From IMG/VR virus record IMGVR_UViG_2740892209_000015: a stretch of 23,002 nucleotides of DNA; one strand, 5' to 3'. This document shows positions 3,579-21,634 of this stretch, piece after piece; within the stretch, counting starts at the first letter, position 1, and each line of letters opens with the position of its first letter. The position numbers and the translations under genes are program-made. This DNA comes from a virus (lineage: Duplodnaviria; Heunggongvirae; Uroviricota; Caudoviricetes). Under the pieces are notes generated by a model, which searched no databases, was not told where the DNA came from, and saw only the letters and a program-made list of their open reading frames with translations.

Positions 3579-3597
3579 TGGTGCGATAATAGGAACA
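3579..3597. repeat. Degenerate direct repeat of the thrW 3' end (att core, junction between the two elements)
   Basis: AATGGTGCGATAATAGGA here versus AATGGTGCCGATAATAGGA at 21557-21575 (one indel). Lies 15 nt after the int stop. Confidence 0.7.
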
Positions 3598-7727: not shown

Positions 7728-8251
7728 ATATCCAATGTGTATGCTGTCGATGCTACGCGCGCGTACTTGTCGCAAAATATCAGGCAAAGGCCAGATTCAG
7801 AATGTCGTGATAACCACCAGCACAACATGAGATGTCATGTAACGCGATTTATCACGTCAGATACATGTGATTGGTGTACCCGCATAAAACATTGTCATAG
7901 CGCGTCCTGTGCGCATATACGCCGATAATCAACACATCACCACCACTCTGTCTCATGTAGAGAACAGTTTTATGGTATCCCCCCGCCATCGTGTGCATAC
8001 TGGTCGGACGTAGTTGCAAAATTTTTTGCAACTGATACCCCTCGCACGCGTACTTGTCTCGAAATTGGTGTTTTGCTGTGGCAGTGATATCAGAAAAATC
8101 TTCCTGTTTCACATAAAGCGGATATGTGCGCACTGTAACGGCCCCATCAACGGGGATCGGATTTGAAATCCCGACCCAAGCTATGTACCAAATGCCATGT
8201 CTTGGATATATGATGATTGCCATTCTAAACAACGCTAAAGGGAGGGTTGGT

Positions 8252-8650
8252 GTGAATCAATTGAAGCGATTGGTTGTCTCCGGTTTATTATTTGCTTCTT
8301 TTGGAGCGAACGCTGAATGCTGGATTATTGGTGATCTGAAAGGACAAGAAGCCTCAAGTTCAGATGGGTATAACTATAAGTTATCATCTATACCAGATAC
8401 CTTTCATTTGGTAATAAGTAAAGAGAAGGCGGATCTTATCTTGGCAAAAGATGGTATAGGTGGAGGTATTGATTATTACCCGCTATCTCCGAATGCCATG
8501 ATGGGAAGAAGCTATCGAGATGGTCAACTGACGCTTGTCACATGGGCAATCTCAAATGACGGAAAAGTGATCCATACACGAACAATTAGTCGATCTGATA
8601 TAGGCTCATTTACAGGCTCATTTGTCGGCAATGTTAAAGGCAAGTGTTAA
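8252..8650 (+). CDS. Secreted/periplasmic protein with N-terminal signal peptide (132 aa, GTG start)
   Basis: AGGGAGGG RBS 5 nt before GTG at 8252. N-terminus KRLVVSGLLFASFGANA followed by a polar mature region. AT-rich. Convergent with the 701-aa gene. Confidence 0.55.
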   Translation: MNQLKRLVVSGLLFASFGANAECWIIGDLKGQEASSSDGYNYKLSSIPDTFHLVISKEKADLILAKDGIGGGIDYYPLSPNAMMGRSYRDGQLTLVTWAISNDGKVIHTRTISRSDIGSFTGSFVGNVKGKC

Positions 8651-8711
8651 TGTTCATAACTATTTGAAAAAATACTAATTACTATTATAACCAACCATCC
8701 ATGGCCATCTG

Positions 8712-10817
8712 TTATTGAGCTTCCTTTTGCGATGCTTGTGCTGCTGTGGTCAGTGATTGTGTGACCGTACTGATCGCTCTGTCATATGCTGTGCTACCTT
8801 TTGGCGTATTTGCCAGACGTAACAAGGCATTTCGTATAACAGGGCTTTCGTATGCCTTCGCTGCTCCGCCTACGACACCAGCAGCAGGAACAACAAACGC
8901 AGCCGTTTTTAGCATCCCCGCTAATACTGCTGCGTTTATGATGCCACCACCAACTAACAATCCATAAAGCTGCTGACCATTTAAGTTTTGAACGTTCGCT
9001 TTTGCCGCGTGTCTTGTATCGTTGAGGTATTTAATAACGCCGTCCAGTTCCTTTCCATGTATGCCTTTAAAGAAAGTTGCTGATTGCTTCCTGTTCCGGT
9101 GTAACGCATTAATAAACTTCTCAACACTGATATTTCCAGACGGATCAGTCGCCTTATCTACAGCATTCTGAACTATGGCTGCTCGTGCGTTTTGCCTACC
9201 ATTGTCATCCAGAAGCCTGTAAAGCTGAGAACGTTCTGATGGGCTTTGGCTAAAAACAAGTTTTGTTACATCCTCAGGCGTGGCCTTGCCGCTGGCTATT
9301 GCCTTTTGAACGCGCGTTCTTCCCATCATGTCATTGAATTTAGACCATGAGCGATCAACCCTTGCCATATTAATAGCTTCGTCTGCTCCAAGATTTTTGG
9401 CTACGGCTTTTTTCATATCCGCCGTATATGCCTTGTAGATAATATCGCTGGCTTTCTGGAGCGTATCTTTATCAACAGTGTCAGATGACGCCATAAATCG
9501 CTTTCGAAGATCGGTTCTGTTTTCCCTCGCCAGACGCAGGTCATTTGGTCCGCTGGTGATATCGTCTTTAAATTGCTGCAAGACTTTTACCGCGGCTCTA
9601 TCCTGAGATTTGCCCGGGCGGCTTAACACGGCAATCTGATTGTCGATAGCTTTTACCGTGTTTGAGAGATCGACAGGGGTATCCCCCATAGCGTCAATTA
9701 TGCGGTTATATCGCTTTCCTGCTGCCTCAATGAATTTTTGTTGCCCTTTAGTCGCAGATTCATAAAGCTGTTTATCAGAAATGCCACCCAGACCATCGCT
9801 AAATGTTCTGACTAAATTTTCTCGTGCTTGTTGTTGATTCAGCCGATTCTTACCGGTTCCAAAAAAAGGAACTCTTTCGCCTAATGTCTGAGCCTGACTC
9901 TGCATAAAGGTTTTATCTTTCAGCATGTCACTGGTCATTAACGGCAGATTTCTTTCCGATGCAAAGTCGACAGCAGCCTTTGCTTCAGGCGACATATCAC
10001 CACGAACAGCCCTCGAAACCGCACTCGCTGTATTTTCCAGCCCCTTACCAATACCACCAATGCCAGCAGAAATTACCGTTTGTAACGGATCAATATCTTC
10101 TCCACCAGCGAGGCTGGTGGCTCCCTGTAGTGCTAAATCTGTAGCTGCTGATTTCCCTATGGCCCCCAGCACCGTTCCGGCCCTGCCCGCTGGTGTAAAC
10201 GCCAGCGCATTAGCCAGAAACGATGCCACGTCTTGCGGCGATAAACCCGGCTTGTTCAGAGCATAATCACCGGATGGCAGGGAAACGATAGTGTTACCCT
10301 TCTCATCCTGCCTTAATTTCGCTCCCATGCTCTGAAGAATCTTTTCCTGAGATGCGTCAGAGCCGAAAAGTTGAGACCATCGAGCTTTTAGAGCATCCAT
10401 GCTGAGTGAGGTTAACTCTGGGGCAAGGTCGACATTTTGCAGTCTCTCCATCTCTGGAGTCATTCGGCTTTCGCCTGTTATAGCATCGCGCATCGCAGCC
10501 CCAAGACTGGCTCCCTGTTCTGCTGAACGCTCAAGCCCCTCTCTTTGCTGAGTAGCTAACTTTGCATACCCTGACGCAATAGAATTATCAGATGATGTAT
10601 GTTGAATATTTTGAGTTGCTGATTGGGATCGGTCTATTTCATTCGTTGATGGTAGTGGATAGGCAGCATAAAAAGCCTGCTTAGCCTGCTCTACACTTTC
10701 TCCGGCTTGCGGGGCAACGACTTCATTGAAGTATTGCTCCTGAGCCTGCGCTTTTTGTTCTGGTGCTAACGCCTGATACTGTGGAGAGGCGATAACATCT
10801 TTCCATGCTTTAGCCAT
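8712..10817 (-). CDS. Large uncharacterised protein (701 aa); A/Q/K-rich, predicted helical, C-terminal hydrophobic hairpin
   Basis: Long ORF with GGGGTGA RBS, start overlapping the upstream stop (TAATG). Two adjacent hydrophobic stretches near the C-terminus (LYGLLVGGGIINAAVLAGML / AAFVVPAAGVVGGAA). No domain recognised. Confidence 0.8.
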   Translation of the reverse strand: MAKAWKDVIASPQYQALAPEQKAQAQEQYFNEVVAPQAGESVEQAKQAFYAAYPLPSTNEIDRSQSATQNIQHTSSDNSIASGYAKLATQQREGLERSAEQGASLGAAMRDAITGESRMTPEMERLQNVDLAPELTSLSMDALKARWSQLFGSDASQEKILQSMGAKLRQDEKGNTIVSLPSGDYALNKPGLSPQDVASFLANALAFTPAGRAGTVLGAIGKSAATDLALQGATSLAGGEDIDPLQTVISAGIGGIGKGLENTASAVSRAVRGDMSPEAKAAVDFASERNLPLMTSDMLKDKTFMQSQAQTLGERVPFFGTGKNRLNQQQARENLVRTFSDGLGGISDKQLYESATKGQQKFIEAAGKRYNRIIDAMGDTPVDLSNTVKAIDNQIAVLSRPGKSQDRAAVKVLQQFKDDITSGPNDLRLARENRTDLRKRFMASSDTVDKDTLQKASDIIYKAYTADMKKAVAKNLGADEAINMARVDRSWSKFNDMMGRTRVQKAIASGKATPEDVTKLVFSQSPSERSQLYRLLDDNGRQNARAAIVQNAVDKATDPSGNISVEKFINALHRNRKQSATFFKGIHGKELDGVIKYLNDTRHAAKANVQNLNGQQLYGLLVGGGIINAAVLAGMLKTAAFVVPAAGVVGGAAKAYESPVIRNALLRLANTPKGSTAYDRAISTVTQSLTTAAQASQKEAQ

Positions 10818-12283
10818 TAATCACCCCATAGTGAAGAAAAGTTACTGCTGGCTGCTGGCTGTGATACCTGCTCAGATTGCGGCAATGTCTGCGACGAAGA
10901 AGAAGTTCCTCTGTCAACTGCTGAAATAACCCGCAAAGCATCATAAGTTCGACCAGAAGCAGCTTTCAGCGAATTGAACTGGTTTTCCATCTTCCGGCGC
11001 TTGGTATCAATGGTTTTTGTGGAGTCGCCAGGCTGAGGGAAATACATTTGATAATATTTTGACATTTCAGCAGGTGCGATAGCTGCCCCTGTTTCCTGAC
11101 GGAGTATTGCCATTATTGCGTCATTAGCATTAACAACGTATTGCTGCTCTGCTGGGCTGAGCGTTAAGTTAGCCAGCGTCCCATTACCCAAAGCATTATT
11201 AATGATCGCCACTCGCTGTGGGCTAAGCTGGTCTTTCAGTGTATCTATTGAATCAAGAGCATCCCTAACCCTGTATGCAAATCCAGCAGCTTTTTTAGCC
11301 CCTTCTGGCGACTTTTCCATGATCTTTTGGGCTGTTGGCAAAGCTATTGGACGAAACCCATCTCCAGATATTGGCTGGTTTAGTTTTCCCTGCTCTTCAC
11401 TTCCGTCTGTGTAGTATTTTGTGACAGTGCCATCATCGTTTTCTCTAACACTCATTAATTTTTTGGTGTTTGTATTAATTCCAGCCGCTGCCGCAAATGC
11501 CGCCGCCCCCTCTGGATCAGCCTTTAACATTTGCGCGTACTGATTGTAATTCTGCATTGCTGCTGTTGGTGCATATGCTGACGTTAACGCATTTGCTCGG
11601 CTAATATCCTGCCCTCTCGCCTGAAGTGCTTCACCAGCTTTATTGCTGCGAATCGTCTCTGCCAACTCGCCACGCTCAATATCCCGACCCTCCATTCGAT
11701 CTTTGATATCGAAGTACTTCTCATGACCGAGAGAAAACAGCGCCAGATTACCTGCGAAATGCTGGAAGCCCTGCGGGTCATTAACCTGCATTTCAGCAAT
11801 AGTTTCTGGAGGGATACCTAAACGACGCATCTCCTGCTCATTATCCATCATGAACCTGCCAAATGCGCCCGGACCAAGCGATGAGGCTACCTGTGCTTTA
11901 AGCGCCAGATTGCCATAATCATCCCTTTGAGCATCATCGACATAACTCATCCCTTTACGGACTTCCTCAAACTCTTCGGGGAATGCTGTAATAAGATTAC
12001 GCATCTGCTCCCTGTCGCCGGACGCATAAGCATCTGCATAACCTTTCTGGAATGCCGCTTTACGCTCCTGCTGTTGCTGCTGCTTATAAATGTCAGCAAC
12101 TCCAGCCAGACCACGAAGGCCTGTCAGAGCAACGTTATTTGCACCTGATCGAGCCAGTTCATTGTTTTCGCGGATCAGACCAAGCGTTGCGTTAATGTCG
12201 CTTGCCTTTGGCGCATTCTCGTTTTGCGCACCAATGCCAGCCAGAAAACCACCAGAATTAATACCCTGTTGCCACGTAGCCAT
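10817..12283 (-). CDS. Large uncharacterised protein (~488 aa); poly-Q stretch, A/G/Q-rich
   Basis: Long ORF. ATG at 12283 is 4 nt after the stop of the 57-aa ORF; the track's GTG at 12295 is the alternative start. No domain recognised. Confidence 0.75.
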   Translation of the reverse strand: MATWQQGINSGGFLAGIGAQNENAPKASDINATLGLIRENNELARSGANNVALTGLRGLAGVADIYKQQQQQERKAAFQKGYADAYASGDREQMRNLITAFPEEFEEVRKGMSYVDDAQRDDYGNLALKAQVASSLGPGAFGRFMMDNEQEMRRLGIPPETIAEMQVNDPQGFQHFAGNLALFSLGHEKYFDIKDRMEGRDIERGELAETIRSNKAGEALQARGQDISRANALTSAYAPTAAMQNYNQYAQMLKADPEGAAAFAAAAGINTNTKKLMSVRENDDGTVTKYYTDGSEEQGKLNQPISGDGFRPIALPTAQKIMEKSPEGAKKAAGFAYRVRDALDSIDTLKDQLSPQRVAIINNALGNGTLANLTLSPAEQQYVVNANDAIMAILRQETGAAIAPAEMSKYYQMYFPQPGDSTKTIDTKRRKMENQFNSLKAASGRTYDALRVISAVDRGTSSSSQTLPQSEQVSQPAASSNFSSLWGD

Positions 12284-12287
12284 AAAT

Positions 12288-12461
12288 TTACCCACGTCCA
12301 GTTAAAGTGTAAGCCAGCGCCTTATCCATTAATCCCCGAGCAATTTCGTGGATCGTTGGCGCAACTCCTACCTCTGATTTTTTACGCTGCTCCTCCTGAA
12401 TTTTCTTTATCGCTTCCATTTGCTTCTCACTTATCAATACCGGCTTTACTGAAATAGCCAT
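12288..12461 (-). CDS. Small protein (57 aa), possible RHH-like DNA-binding protein; first gene of the operon
   Basis: Below the ORF-track size cutoff; found manually. AAGGGGG RBS 5 nt upstream of the ATG. Sequence MAISVKPVLISEKQMEAIKKIQEEQRKKSEVGVAPTIHEIARGLMDKALAYTLTGRG. Confidence 0.5.
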   Translation of the reverse strand: MAISVKPVLISEKQMEAIKKIQEEQRKKSEVGVAPTIHEIARGLMDKALAYTLTGRG

Positions 12462-15813: not shown

Positions 15814-16416
15814 TTAGTGCGTCACTGGTGCTTCTGGGATGCCGTTTTCGTTTAGTTCGGCAATAAAGCTGTTGTGAAGATCGGCAAGCACTTCTCGCCC
15901 AAACGAAGTGAGTGTTCCCTGTTCAACATCGAACATGTTGCTGTAAAAAATGATGGCATTCTTTGTTCCGACATCAACACCATATTTCTCGATCATTGCG
16001 CCCTCAATGTTGTTTGCCATAGCGAGGCGCTCTGCTACTGGATACAGCGGCATGGCGACGATGCCATTGGAATAAACAGAAACCACGGAATGATTGCCAC
16101 TGTCATCAATAATGCTGACGGTGCCGTTTTCCTTTCTCATTTCATTGATGAATGCTGTTGCTATCAGCCAGCGCCACATAATCACGTGATGCTGTGATGT
16201 GTAATCGAAATATCCCTGGTTGCCGCCACTGGCAATAGCGAGATGTATAAACATGCCTTCATCTGGTTTATCGTCATAATCCCCGGCATCCAGACGATTT
16301 ACGGCATCAATATATGAGACGGTCTCAACGCGTTCTGTCATGCCATCGTTGCTGCGGTACATGATGTTTACGCCGTCAGGCGTTGCTTCTGCATGGAAAG
16401 TTAAGAAATTATTCAT
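15814..16416 (-). CDS. Hypothetical protein (200 aa from the internal ATG)
   Basis: ATG at 16416 overlaps the upstream stop by 8 nt; RBS-like GAGG upstream. The track's longer N-terminal extension lacks an RBS. Confidence 0.55.
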   Translation of the reverse strand: MNNFLTFHAEATPDGVNIMYRSNDGMTERVETVSYIDAVNRLDAGDYDDKPDEGMFIHLAIASGGNQGYFDYTSQHHVIMWRWLIATAFINEMRKENGTVSIIDDSGNHSVVSVYSNGIVAMPLYPVAERLAMANNIEGAMIEKYGVDVGTKNAIIFYSNMFDVEQGTLTSFGREVLADLHNSFIAELNENGIPEAPVTH

Positions 16417-16630
16417 GTTTCGCCTCGCCTGAATGATTCTGTAACTCATATTTGCCCAACAATTCGTCCGCTTCCTGAATAGCTTCTGGTACGCCATTGA
16501 GCAGTGACATAACCGCGCCAATCATTAACTTGTCTCTGTTGCTGGGGCTGGCCCCTTCAAGCCAGAACCCTAAAACAGTCTGAACCTGTTCGATGCGACA
16601 TTGCGCTTCAATGAGCTGGATGTTGGTCAT
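16409..16630 (-). CDS. Hypothetical small protein (73 aa)
   Basis: GGAGAG RBS; ATGA start/stop overlap with the upstream gene. Confidence 0.55.
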   Translation of the reverse strand: MTNIQLIEAQCRIEQVQTVLGFWLEGASPSNRDKLMIGAVMSLLNGVPEAIQEADELLGKYELQNHSGEAKHE

Positions 16631-16890
16631 TTCGCACTCTCCACATCGATTAAACCGAGATCTATCAGGGAGGTAACTTTTTGTAGCCAGCTATTGATTA
16701 CTGTCGCCTGTTCCCCTCCCACCGAGGGAACAATCTCATTCATCACATGAACCAGACCTGTGCGCGCTCTGGTAAGCCGTTCAGTCGCGCAATCTGCGGG
16801 AGTGAATGTGTCTGGATATGGCTCTTCACGGCTCAGCAATGATTCAATTTCCAGCTCACACGGATGACGATAAATTAAGTTGATATTCAT
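16627..16890 (-). CDS. Hypothetical small protein (87 aa)
   Basis: GGGGGTGA RBS; ATGA overlap with the upstream gene. Confidence 0.55.
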   Translation of the reverse strand: MNINLIYRHPCELEIESLLSREEPYPDTFTPADCATERLTRARTGLVHVMNEIVPSVGGEQATVINSWLQKVTSLIDLGLIDVESAK

Positions 16891-17081
16891 TTTTCACCCC
16901 CAAGAATTACCAGCTCGGCACGGGCATCGTTAACCAAAGATGAGCACGCTTTAATCGCATCCACGACATCAGCAGCGTCCATTTCTTCAGCCGAAAGACT
17001 GACAGCAACCAGGACAGCCGCTGCTTGCTCGATTAATTGAAGTGCGGACGTAAGGCGAGGGGTATTAATTGAGTTATTCAT
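16887..17081 (-). CDS. Hypothetical small protein (64 aa from the internal ATG)
   Basis: ATG at 17081 with ACGGGGG RBS, overlapping the upstream stop by 8 nt. Confidence 0.5.
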   Translation of the reverse strand: MNNSINTPRLTSALQLIEQAAAVLVAVSLSAEEMDAADVVDAIKACSSLVNDARAELVILGGEK

Positions 17082-17292
17082 TGGTTGCCCCCGTTTTGCA
17101 TGGCATTTGTCCACCTTCCAGCAGGAAATGAACGTCACGAACGGCGAGATCCAATATCGCGAGTAACGCCTTCAGTCTTTCGTCTCGTGAGGGAGAGTTG
17201 CTCACCAGAATGTCGTTAATCACTTCTGTCAGTGTGATGATCTGGCTTGTGCGTTCGAGGGGATCCATATGCACATCGTAGGTTTTAATCAT
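17074..17292 (-). CDS. Hypothetical small protein (72 aa)
   Basis: ATG at 17292 preceded by GGAGGTGG, overlapping the stop of the 64-aa ORF (ATGATTAA). In frame with the long 342-aa track ORF but most likely an independent gene. Confidence 0.5.
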   Translation of the reverse strand: MIKTYDVHMDPLERTSQIITLTEVINDILVSNSPSRDERLKALLAILDLAVRDVHFLLEGGQMPCKTGATNE

Positions 17293-17479
17293 GTGCCACC
17301 TCCATGCGGATACGACCAGCAAAAAAGCAGACGTGATCGCGCACCAGAGAACGGCGAGCATCGCGTTCAGACTCGGCAGCAATATGATGAATTTTGGCGG
17401 TAATTGTCGGGCAATCGCGGCGAACTGCGGCGATAATCCAGATAAATTGCGGTTTTGGGGTAGGGGTAGTAGCCAGCAT
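17285..17479 (-). CDS. Hypothetical small protein (64 aa)
   Basis: Strong AAGGAGG RBS 7 nt upstream of the ATG at 17479. Different frame from the long track ORF that covers it. Confidence 0.5.
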   Translation of the reverse strand: MLATTPTPKPQFIWIIAAVRRDCPTITAKIHHIAAESERDARRSLVRDHVCFFAGRIRMEVAHD

Positions 17480-17641
17480 GTGGCAGCCTCCTTGATTGAT
17501 GGTTTATAGCCACCGCCCAAGAGACCAATCTTGCTGGCGGTGGACTGTACGGAGTTGGCCTTACTGGCAATCAAGGAAACCAGCCTACCCGAAGGTAGCC
17601 CCATACAGCCCACCATTGATAAGGTGTGCGTGTGCGCCGAT

Positions 17642-17664
17642 ACAAAAAAAGACGCTGGCGCGTC
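17642..17664 (-). terminator. Candidate intrinsic terminator (minus strand) inside the long track ORF
   Basis: On the minus strand: hairpin GACGC-GCCA-GCGTC followed by a U7 run. Confidence 0.45.
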
Positions 17665-18102
17665 ATGTATCGCCTCGATTGTCAGCGGGAGGCCAATCCC
17701 GGCACCCGTTTTATGAGGTGCCTTATAACCATAAACCGTGTTGCCGCATAACGGCAAGCTCTTTTTTATGGACTCCGAAAACTCAGTATTGGAAGCACCA
17801 GATGCACAGTACATCGCGCTCATTTCGTTAACGTCACGCACGTGGACGAATGTTTTTGTGGAGTCACTACACGAGCGGAAGACATCATCTACGACCAGAA
17901 ATTTTCTGGCGCAGCCGCTGACCTTCTCAATGCTAATATCATCGCCCGAGATTTCTGGTATGGTTAAGGCATCCGTTCCGACCACCAGCAAATGATAAAC
18001 TTTGCTTGCATCTGCTGTATTAATGCCTGACTTTGCCGTCATATTGCTGGATTTTGGCGACATACCTGCCAGTGAAAATGTCTTCTTCTGGACGGTTAGC
18101 AT
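17642..18102 (-). CDS. Hypothetical protein, N-terminal ~150 codons of the long track ORF; 3' end unresolved
   Basis: ATG at 18102 with GGAGG RBS, 3 nt after the stop of the upstream gene. The first ~150 aa look protein-like, then composition degenerates. No in-frame stop before 17074. Confidence 0.35.
17741..17767 (+). terminator. Candidate intrinsic terminator (plus strand), implying a short antisense transcript
   Basis: Hairpin TTGCCG-CATAA-CGGCAA followed by GCTC and a T6 run on the plus strand. Confidence 0.4.
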
Positions 18103-18278
18103 TTGTTAACCTCCGCGAACTCCTTCATGAAACGTGCCAGCGGTTGTACGCATGGCGATTGATACCCGTCGCGATAAAACGTCACTCGGTTGTGAGACAC
18201 GCTTTCGACAGTAACGAGTGCTCCGTGGGCATCTTTGTAGCGTTTTTGTGGTTGTGGTGTTCCTGTTGGCTTAGACAT
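18096..18278 (-). CDS. Hypothetical small protein (60 aa from the internal ATG)
   Basis: ATG at 18278 preceded by GGAGGTGG, overlapping the stop of the AntA-like gene by 8 nt. Confidence 0.5.
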   Translation of the reverse strand: MSKPTGTPQPQKRYKDAHGALVTVESVSHNRVTFYRDGYQSPCVQPLARFMKEFAEVNKC

Positions 18279-19104
18279 TGACCACCTCCAGACGCTTGGC
18301 GAGCCAGCGTTGCGACAGGCGGGTGAGTTCTCCTTTGCGCTGCTCATATTCCATGCCCATATCAATTAACGTGATATTGGTGCTTTCGAGATATGAGAGG
18401 TGCTCAAGCTGTTCTGCGTTCATATGGTCGCGAGGTTCGCCAGAATAGCCATTTATCCGCGCCCACTGCTTAGCAGTTAGCCCACCAAGAACGATACGAG
18501 AAATCATATTGCTCTCGTTTGTGTAGTGGTGTTGCTGCGTCGTTTTCCCCTGCTCGGCACGGGCCATATTCAGCGCATCGCACATTGGCTTAAAGTTGTT
18601 TGCGGCACTAATACGGGCTTTTAGCTGGCGACGATAGCGGGCGGCGATTTCAGGCACGCTACGCTGTAATTCTTCCTCGCACTGGATGAAATAACGACGG
18701 ATAGCGCGACCCTGATCATTGCGTTCGATCATTGCCAGTTCTTTCGCCATTCCGACACTTAACAGATAGTCTTTGCCGGGTCTGCCAGACTGCTTAATCT
18801 TGCTGTAAGCCGCGCCATTCGGGCTTTTCCCCAAATTTGGGGAAATTGTTTTATGGACTGAGTAATCGTGCCCAATGGTGAAGTCATATTCAGAGATGCG
18901 ATCAGTGATCCATGTAGAGAAGTCTTTTCCCACGCCCAACGCTTTGTGTAACGCTTTTGCGCTAACAATATTGGTTTCACGCCCACCGATATGACCAGGA
19001 ATAACCGGGACAATTGCGGCAAATTCATTACCGTTAATTGTGCCCAGAGAGGCGTTCAGATGAGGGGCAGCCTCAGAAATTAATCTGCTTTTTTCGATGT
19101 TCAT
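18271..19104 (-). CDS. Phage antirepressor-like protein, AntA/KilAC-type domains (277 aa)
   Basis: SAKALHKALGVGKDFSTWITDRI...DY resembles the AntA N-terminal antirepressor domain. GGAG RBS. Confidence 0.6.
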   Translation of the reverse strand: MNIEKSRLISEAAPHLNASLGTINGNEFAAIVPVIPGHIGGRETNIVSAKALHKALGVGKDFSTWITDRISEYDFTIGHDYSVHKTISPNLGKSPNGAAYSKIKQSGRPGKDYLLSVGMAKELAMIERNDQGRAIRRYFIQCEEELQRSVPEIAARYRRQLKARISAANNFKPMCDALNMARAEQGKTTQQHHYTNESNMISRIVLGGLTAKQWARINGYSGEPRDHMNAEQLEHLSYLESTNITLIDMGMEYEQRKGELTRLSQRWLAKRLEVVNV

Positions 19105-21558: not shown

Positions 21559-21634
21559 TGGTGCCGATAATAGGAGTCGAACCTACGACCTTCGCATTAC
21601 GAATGCGCTGCTCTACCAACTGAGCTATATCGGC
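21559..21634 (-). tRNA. thrW: tRNA-Thr (anticodon CGU)
   Basis: Reverse complement reads GCCGATATAGCTCAGTTGGTAGAGCAGCGCATTCGTAATGCGAAGGTCGTAGGTTCGACTCCTATTATCGGCACCA, 76 nt, with CGT in the anticodon loop and 3' CCA. Confidence 0.93.

Follow-up and report, generated by a model that had tools for sequence, protein, structure and literature searches.

The satellite P4 carries a constitutive promoter, PLE, inside its eta gene, and its kil gene is a truncated eta nested in the longer frame (PMC10111431). The Rfam models for the C4 and isrK RNAs detect P4 CI and seqA relatives (PMC10111431). The same paper, citing Forti et al. 1999, states that immunity-specific termination is prevented when P4 eta is translated from the late promoter. 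In Gifsy-1, read-through transcripts of IsrK are processed to an RNA of ~80 nucleotides (nt), and the open reading frame (ORF) that runs across this RNA is conserved in its nucleotides, not in its amino acids (PMC4825925). EcCIMP1 is a functional phage-inducible chromosomal island (PICI) of E. coli MP1, whose alpA gene is induced by the helper phage and which the P22-like phage Kapi1 mobilises with very low frequency (PMC11773190). Its authors annotate an "Ash family protein" and call the packaging mechanism unresolved; neither the term "small RNA" nor the term "pac site" was found in the text of their paper (PMC11773190). Here, a stretch of 23,002 nt of viral DNA (Caudoviricetes; IMG/VR record IMGVR_UViG_2740892209_000015), referred to below as the window, was analysed. 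The subject is a long ORF of 342 amino acids (aa) on its minus strand (17074-18102) and what is embedded in it. An earlier note, made from the sequence without database searches, had considered this ORF to be probably an artefact that covers terminators, a nested gene and a possible regulatory RNA.

The region is likely to be a P4-like immunity and early-control module, in which the long ORF acts as a translated read-through frame maintained by selection. Over most of the ORF it would be translation that matters and not the peptide, and the last 72 codons are those of the next gene. The ORF starts with an ATG at 18102 and ends with a TAA at 17076-17074. Its start codon overlaps the stop codon of a DUF4222 gene (ATGCTAA) and is preceded by GGAGG 9 nt further 5'. 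The ORF is the equivalent of P4 eta, matches the Pfam family Phage_ASH and is a composite that reads through all embedded parts. The features on which the earlier note was built, i.e. the ORF, a hairpin followed by U7, two ORFs of 64 and 72 aa and a hairpin on the plus strand, are all present where it had located them. For the most part this is known biology, to which some new twists are added: The satellite's version of the P4 eta frame is open across promoter, IsrK/seqA, C4/CI and a cell-division-inhibitor gene.

Two RNAs recognised by Rfam lie wholly inside the long ORF and on the same strand. The first is an IsrK-type leader RNA (17645-17721, minus strand; RF01394, 65 bits, E = 4.4e-12), which corresponds to P4 seqA and to the a1/b1 region of P1. 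It comprises the targets a1 (AUUGGCCU, 17697-17690) and b1 (CAAUCGAGG, 17681-17673), both on the minus strand. The suspicion that the ORF covers a real intrinsic terminator was well founded, as the 3' end of this IsrK RNA is formed by a hairpin (17664-17651, minus strand; GACGC-GCCA-GCGTC) and U7 (17650-17644; T7 in the DNA). In the frame of the long ORF, hairpin and U7 read DAPASFFV. The second RNA is a C4/CI-type immunity RNA (17533-17620, minus strand), which matches RF01695 over its full length with 79.2 bits (E = 2.7e-14; gathering score 45). Both Rfam matches pass the gathering threshold. Within C4, the loop b' (UUUCCUUGAUUG, 17579-17568) and the single-stranded segment a' (AAGGCCAAC, 17562-17554) can be discerned on the same strand. 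Downstream targets equivalent to P4 seqC and P1 a2/b2 were read from the sequence at 17487-17529 (minus strand). They consist of a2 (AUUGGUCU, 17529-17522) and b2 (CAAUCAAGGAGG, 17498-17487), which contains the ribosome-binding site of the icd gene and pairs with the C4 loop. This means, the regulatory RNA that had only been surmised inside the ORF can be named.

For comparative work, one genome per species was scanned with an alignment of three Icd/Kil sequences, which yielded 80 loci. In 78 of them, distributed over many genera of Enterobacterales, isrK and C4 are found directly upstream of icd/kil. The window's C4 core forms a duplex of -36.8 kcal/mol with its cognate isrK target and one of -31.8 kcal/mol with the downstream target. 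Among 83 unique loci, cognate duplexes have a mean of -36 kcal/mol for both the leader and the downstream target, compared to -25 kcal/mol (leader target) and -28 kcal/mol (downstream target) for non-cognate pairs, and at least 47 different loop variants occur. An alignment of four immunity types (A1) reveals that C4 loop and single-stranded segment change together with both targets. The covarying triples are CCTTGATTG / CAATCGAGG / CAATCAAGG in the window and CCTTGTAC / GTACGAGG / GTACAAGG in Ec050. The corresponding sets are CCTTCAGA / TCTGAAGG (twice) in AF18 and CTATACAG / CTGTATAG (twice) in Ec1115. In the minimum-energy fold of the window leader, a1/b1 are paired with C4 (z = -4.25). Judged by covariation, the RNAs are functional. 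The earlier comparison with P4-style, termination-based immunity control in an operon that leads to the primase was right as well: P4 itself gives the same isrK and C4 matches inside eta.

The cassette that comprises isrK, C4 and the start of icd (17438-17738) is mosaic. It is 82-84% identical to lambdoid/Stx prophages, in which a Rha-family gene follows (L007, L008). The spacer of ~28 nt between IsrK and C4 in the window is common to P1-like plasmids and lambdoid/Stx prophages. In most P4-like loci and in EcCIMP1 of MP1, the IsrK-C4 spacer comprises 66 nt and includes an extra, apparently covarying hairpin, in some cases with a TATAAT-like motif.

A putative promoter of IsrK, the equivalent of P4 PLE, is located at 17728-17757 on the minus strand. 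It is composed of a -35 box TTGCCG (17757-17752), an 18-nt spacer, a -10 box TATGGT (17733-17728) and a G at +1 (17721). An A-tract (17768-17762, minus strand) is found 5' of the -35 box. In the 78 loci and in P4, the same arrangement recurs: CTTGC (-35), 17-18 nt, TAT(G/A)GT or TACAGT (-10), 6 nt and G. By homology to P4 PLE, a PLE-type promoter function may be assigned to 17728-17757. A consensus scan found a hairpin followed by a T-run on the plus strand (17741-17767), which overlaps the -35 box and the spacer of this promoter. From it, the earlier note had deduced a plus-strand terminator and a short antisense transcript; alternatively, it had suspected a frameshift or sequencing error. 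Both an error that fuses separate genes and an antisense RNA ending at 17741-17767 are most improbable, even if the plus-strand hairpin with its T-run does exist and the nested ORFs have ribosome-binding sites of their own. The stem is not conserved: some relatives, e.g. TTGCCGACTATCGCCAA, have an interrupted stem, and others have none. By contrast, every locus, P4 PLE included, retains the overlapping -35 and -10 hexamers. Where the A-run lies, P4-type loci have a T-run in the sense strand instead; consequently, the plus-strand terminator is not conserved. The consensus scan detected no promoter-like site on the plus strand near 17741-17767. It found two terminator-like sites compared to 1.7 ± 1.3 in shuffled sequences, i.e. 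chance level; therefore, terminator features gain significance here only through the Rfam models and the comparative evidence. In addition, the characterised RNAs of the family are sense-strand RNAs. The plus-strand hairpin is probably fortuitous, and a terminator or antisense RNA on that strand was ruled out on account of the unconserved stem and its overlap with the conserved -35 box and spacer. The regulatory RNAs of the region are located on the sense strand and pair in trans or in cis with targets on the sense strand. An error in the sequence is contradicted by relatives: The frame is unbroken in each one read (342 or 355 aa in L001-L004, L014 and L094), and it is identical or near-identical in independent complete genomes, among them the experimentally studied EcCIMP1 of MP1 (355 aa).

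An argument for a function of the long ORF is the conservation of its frame. From isrK +1 to the end of C4, a forward frame is free of stop codons in 77 of 78 Enterobacterales loci. On average, 1.08 forward frames per locus are open compared to 0.28 for the three reverse frames, which corresponds to ~0.09 per control frame. The distance between hairpin 2 of IsrK and the ATGGT motif of C4 was determined in 70 loci and assumes ten values. Eight length classes (83, 86, 113, 125, 128, 131, 161 and 170 nt), to which 68 of the 70 loci belong, are all 2 modulo 3. Two sub-distances within this stretch differ modulo 3 and yet compensate each other. In spite of differences of +1 and +38 nt, the frame is open both in the window and in its Ec050-type relatives. 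As the RNA alone does not need a fixed length modulo 3, this points to selection on a continuous translated frame, in agreement with the mechanism known for P4 eta. At the level of sequence comparison, these data indicate that the long ORF is selected and not accidental. If so, a P4-type translated frame over immunity RNAs, by which induced transcripts escape, has been kept by selection across many genera.

These results have to be weighed against a pure annotation artefact, in which the RNAs, an antisense gene fragment in the N-terminal third and the alternative icd frame merely lack stop codons and only the separate small genes are translated. Several observations would fit such a view. The amino acids between isrK and C4 are dictated by the RNA, and differences of +1 and +38 nt between the window and Ec050-type relatives shift ~37 nt into another frame. 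The N-terminal part has neither a protein-family match nor a distant protein homologue; its substitutions fall on the three codon positions in a ratio of 13/6/12, and the ratio of nonsynonymous to synonymous substitution rates (dN/dS) is ~0.6. Moreover, the NCBI Prokaryotic Genome Annotation Pipeline (PGAP) labels the ORF a pseudogene in some genomes. Nevertheless, an artefact is an unlikely explanation. It leaves unexplained why the frame is open in nearly all loci when a control frame rarely is, why eight length classes are equal modulo 3 with compensating sub-distances, and why the +1 frame of icd is free of stops only in those loci that use it (see below). The start of the ORF is coupled to the upstream gene, and P4 eta is reported to be translated with a regulatory effect (PMC10111431). 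The verdict of an artefact can thus not be upheld for a frame that has been kept through compensating indels and whose P4 counterpart is translated. The suspected frameshift or sequencing error fell with the unbroken frame of the relatives, including MP1.

The nested gene in a different frame, which the earlier note had proposed, proved to be a real one. It is an icd/kil-like gene encoding 64 aa (17285-17479, minus strand) behind AAGGAGG, matches NCBIfam phage_ICD_like with 3.8e-20 and is annotated by PGAP. Its protein is 44% identical to P4 Kil. In 70 of the 78 loci, the long ORF is in frame with icd/kil, which is the P4-type nesting, but not in the window and eight relatives. In all nine window-type loci, the icd ATG is preceded by GGAGGCTGCCACATG or by another sequence of equal length; compared to the GCT/ATC versions, 1 nt is missing here. 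There, icd is read in the +1 frame, and none of the nine has a +1 stop in icd. By contrast, the +1 frame of icd in the in-frame relatives does carry a stop, usually at nt 40-43. Icd identity within the window-type group ranges from 70% to 100%. The P4 solution thus tolerates a variant in which the long ORF and icd/kil overlap in different frames.

The 72-aa ORF makes up the C-terminal portion of the long reading frame (17074-17292, minus strand). It lies behind GGAGGTGG, and its ATG overlaps the stop codon of the icd-like gene (ATGATTAA). As this gene, too, is in +1 to icd, the long ORF runs on into it, which results in a fusion, and both share one stop codon. The 72-aa ORF is a real gene, as had been assumed before: Homologues with 41-52% aa identity occupy the same position in loci of other genera (Leclercia, Symbiopectobacterium and Buttiauxella), and PGAP annotates it on its own in strain DJH_137. 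The most C-rich and G-poor stretch of the long ORF is situated at 17400-17502 (minus strand), with 18-22 C versus 9-13 G per 60 nt. It spans the ribosome-binding site and the first ~25 codons of icd. In analogy to P4 timm, it is a candidate Rho-loading site. In P4, timm is a Rho-dependent terminator under the control of RNA pairing and translation, and CI is processed by RNase P/PNPase.

Could the long ORF encode a genuine multi-domain protein of the Ash or Bro network, a regulatory polypeptide in whose gene the RNAs are merely embedded? A Pfam family Phage_ASH exists and is placed in the Bro domain network by PMC10111431, PGAP lists 355-aa "ash family protein" entries, and the EcCIMP1 authors remark that the Ash family protein is strongly conserved (PMC11773190). 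All the same, such a protein is very unlikely. Phage_ASH (PF10554) matches residues 124-220 of the long ORF with 1.7e-13, and this span corresponds to nt ~17733-17443, i.e. the stretch from IsrK to C4. The same stretch accounts for the match in P4 Eta (residues 22-146), in MP1, in Ec1115 and in ORFs of P1-like elements. Variation within it follows RNA pairing and not codons. Outside of it, the ORFs are unrelated between loci: In distant loci, the length varies from 168 to 429 aa, and the N-terminal parts share no relationship. The C-terminal partner differs, too, being mostly an in-frame Kil and here an out-of-frame icd followed by the unrelated 72-aa gene. The comparison with homologous loci therefore had a divided outcome. 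A conserved protein of ~340 aa, which the earlier note had named as evidence against its own reading, is found among close relatives only (at least 88% nucleotide identity), and not in the distant loci. Beyond the close relatives it was ruled out, since the N-terminal 111 aa have no family match and no homologue in the 80 loci. The label "Ash family protein" (PF10554 and the PGAP name) stands for what the seqA/IsrK and CI/C4 RNAs give when they are translated, and recognition of the RNA module would mend the annotation in thousands of Enterobacterales genomes. The PGAP names given to this locus vary by genome, among them a 355-aa "ash family protein", a truncated pseudogene and a 241-aa "Icd-like" protein. 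In some genomes, e.g. AR_0085, a feature at the locus bears the name "nicotinic acetylcholine receptor subunit beta".

The N-terminal third of the long ORF (18102-17770) is of a different nature. It has no match in Pfam or NCBIfam. Except for a trivial antisense match to gene 3 of P22-type phages, its 111 aa also lack homologues in the 80 loci of other species. Between the window and MP1, it diverges by 9.3% compared to 1.5-4.6% in its neighbours. On neighbouring genes, there were too few substitutions for an informative dN/dS, with the N-terminal segment as the only exception. Antisense to the ORF, a fragment of ~110 nt of a P22-type small-terminase gene (gene 3) is located at 17848-17959 on the plus strand (alignment A2). 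Over 17848-17954 (extending to ~17959 in A2), it shares 91% identity with nt 268-374 of gene 3 from E. coli Lederbergviruses (IME10, Dewey, Louie and E212) and 86% with P22. The sequences that flank the fragment show no homology. The first homologous base is also the first one of the P22 pac 22-mer (4-25 in the annotation of AF527608.1). The equivalent 22-mer in the window is GAATGTTTTTGTGGAGTCACTA (17848-17869), compared to GAAGATTTATCTGAAGTCGTTA in P22 and GAAGGTTTTTCTGACGTCACAT in IME10. Past the 22-mer, window and IME10 differ only in third positions of the gene-3 frame (A2). All E. coli relatives, and EcCIMP1 of MP1 with them, contain the fragment; the loci of other species and Kapi1 lack it. 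Kapi1 was ruled out as its source, as no similarity was found and its small terminase is of a different, 142-aa type.

It is plausible but unproven that the antisense gene-3 fragment represents the packaging (pac) signal of the satellite; on the sequence data, this is a possibility with slightly less than even chances. The published P22 pseudo-pac pattern (PMC10996546) has a 17-nt core which P22 and IME10 match in full, MP1 with one mismatch and the window with two. Against the pac idea, matches with up to two mismatches are expected ~16 times by chance in the window. With so many chance matches, the pattern does not decide whether this is a pac site. The combined view, namely that the N-terminal third is not usefully protein-coding, that a captured P22-type pac is the packaging signal of the EcCIMP1 family and that the frame is a device to override immunity, is more tentative still. 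If the pac reading is true, it would explain the very low transfer by Kapi1, whose small terminase differs, and efficient helpers would be phages such as IME10, Dewey, Louie and E212. The fragment thus provides a testable lead on the packaging of EcCIMP1-type satellites and on the helper phages that accomplish it.

From the parallels with known systems, the following picture of the P4-like module with its translated frame can be drawn. In the quiescent state, the constitutive internal promoter would produce the 77-nt IsrK leader, and most transcripts would end at the hairpin with U7. Transcripts that read through would be processed to the stable C4/CI RNA. Its two exposed segments are predicted to pair with a1/b1 in the leader and with a2/b2 over the icd ribosome-binding site. 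This pairing would block icd translation and lead to termination before the replication genes, probably in a Rho-dependent manner in the C-rich start of icd. Upon induction, helper-activated transcripts of the alpA operon would bring ribosomes from DUF4222 into the long ORF via the ATGCTAA overlap. Ribosomes that translate promoter, IsrK, terminator, C4, targets and icd may prevent the RNAs from folding and pairing and may keep Rho off. In this way, transcription would reach the primase gene despite immunity.

A number of points weigh against this interpretation. Every functional step has been inferred from P4, P1 and Gifsy-1, and a translational override of the intrinsic IsrK terminator is only putative here. 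The IsrK promoter matches the consensus in 8 of 12 positions and remains under the threshold of a simple scan. The nesting of P4 eta/kil is not reproduced, as the long ORF is shifted by +1 against icd. To some extent, its frame could be open because the conserved RNA sequence is free of stop codons there by chance. According to a rough estimate, 31 stop-free substitutions in the N-terminal third are not statistically remarkable, and the dN/dS found there neither proves nor excludes a functional peptide.

By its sequence, the element in the window is classified as a phage satellite (PICI) of the EcCIMP1 family. An island of ~18 kb is bordered by the att core GATAATAGGA at 3585 and 21566 and adjoins tRNA-Thr (21559-21634) and proA. 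This is the tRNA-Thr/proA integration site with the att core TCCTATTATC that is typical of the family. The gene order agrees as well: int, alpA, antirepressor, DUF4222, ash, icd, primase and ejection-protein genes. With EcCIMP1 of E. coli MP1, the island shares 93-98.6% identity over the modules for regulation and replication. At the megablast level, ~8177-12313, which contains ejection-protein genes similar to P22 gp14/7/20/16, and some accessory genes have no match to EcCIMP1 of MP1. At least 80% of the studied region is present in ~480 complete E. coli genomes. A gene of the AntA/AntB family (18271-19104) is located upstream of the long ORF. Downstream, a chain of small ORFs leads from the 72-aa gene to the primase (16627-17138 and 15814-16630, minus strand), with start/stop overlaps of 4-8 nt (ATGAATAA and ATGA types). 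This suggests that the chain from the 72-aa gene to the primase is one translationally coupled unit. No family could be assigned to its ORFs, except for a weak chaperone-like Pfam match (E = 0.005) of a 64-aa ORF at 16887-17081.

Among the known systems, immI of P1/P7 resembles the window in its C4 RNA with two exposed segments and in the duplicated targets upstream and over the icd ribosome-binding site. In P1-like plasmids, the stretch from isrK through C4 to the start of icd is 87% identical to 17738-17438 of the window and has the same short spacer. The order c4-icd-coupled ant of P1/P7 immI is not matched, as c4 and icd are present and then the 72-aa ORF follows instead of ant. In P1, the antirepressor gene ant follows icd, whereas in the window the AntA/AntB-family gene is found upstream, and small ORFs and the primase gene are found downstream. 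The module of the window would gate the replication genes of a satellite, that of P1 an antirepressor.

The isrK-orf45-anrP region of Gifsy-1 has in common with the window an IsrK small RNA with its own terminator and an ORF whose translation is coupled to a downstream gene (PMC4825925). There, the downstream gene codes for an antirepressor/Rha-type regulator, here it is icd-like. The Rha-linked layout of Gifsy-1 is seen in the lambdoid relative L008, not in the window. The published mechanism differs, too: It is a trans-activation by the short IsrK (PMC4825925). The ~80-nt STnc1160 / orf45' of Gifsy-1 is probably a C4 homologue; no link between the two was found in the text of PMC4825925.

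EcCIMP1 shares with the window the att core and integration site, the gene order and the same long ORF (355 aa in MP1). It differs in the immunity cassette, which in MP1 has another specificity and another spacer class, and in the ejection-protein and accessory modules, which are unlike those of the window.

The closest parallel is P4. Both elements carry the same two Rfam RNAs, arranged alike within a long ORF with a Phage_ASH match; RF01695 scores 74.9 bits on the cI region of P4. A conserved promoter-like motif is situated directly 5' of the leader, a Kil/Icd-like gene follows behind a ribosome-binding site that is targeted by the RNA, and the operon leads to the primase. Even the start is similar: The ATG of P4 Eta (199 aa) overlaps the orf88 stop as ATGA. 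On the other hand, the N-terminal extension comprises 381 nt in the window, including the gene-3 fragment, and 75 nt in P4. The upstream partner is DUF4222 instead of the alpA/vis homologue of P4, and the gap between IsrK and C4 amounts to 24 nt in the window (Rfam coordinates, 17645 to 17620) versus 107 nt in P4. The window element is a PICI that exploits P22-like phages and not a P2 satellite. In P4, the last 65 codons of the long ORF are kil, read in frame, whereas the ORF of the window is in +1 to icd and continues into the next gene. New are, therefore, the out-of-frame overlap of eta and icd, the fusion to the next gene and the embedded P22-type pac fragment, which are modest novelties within the P4 scheme.

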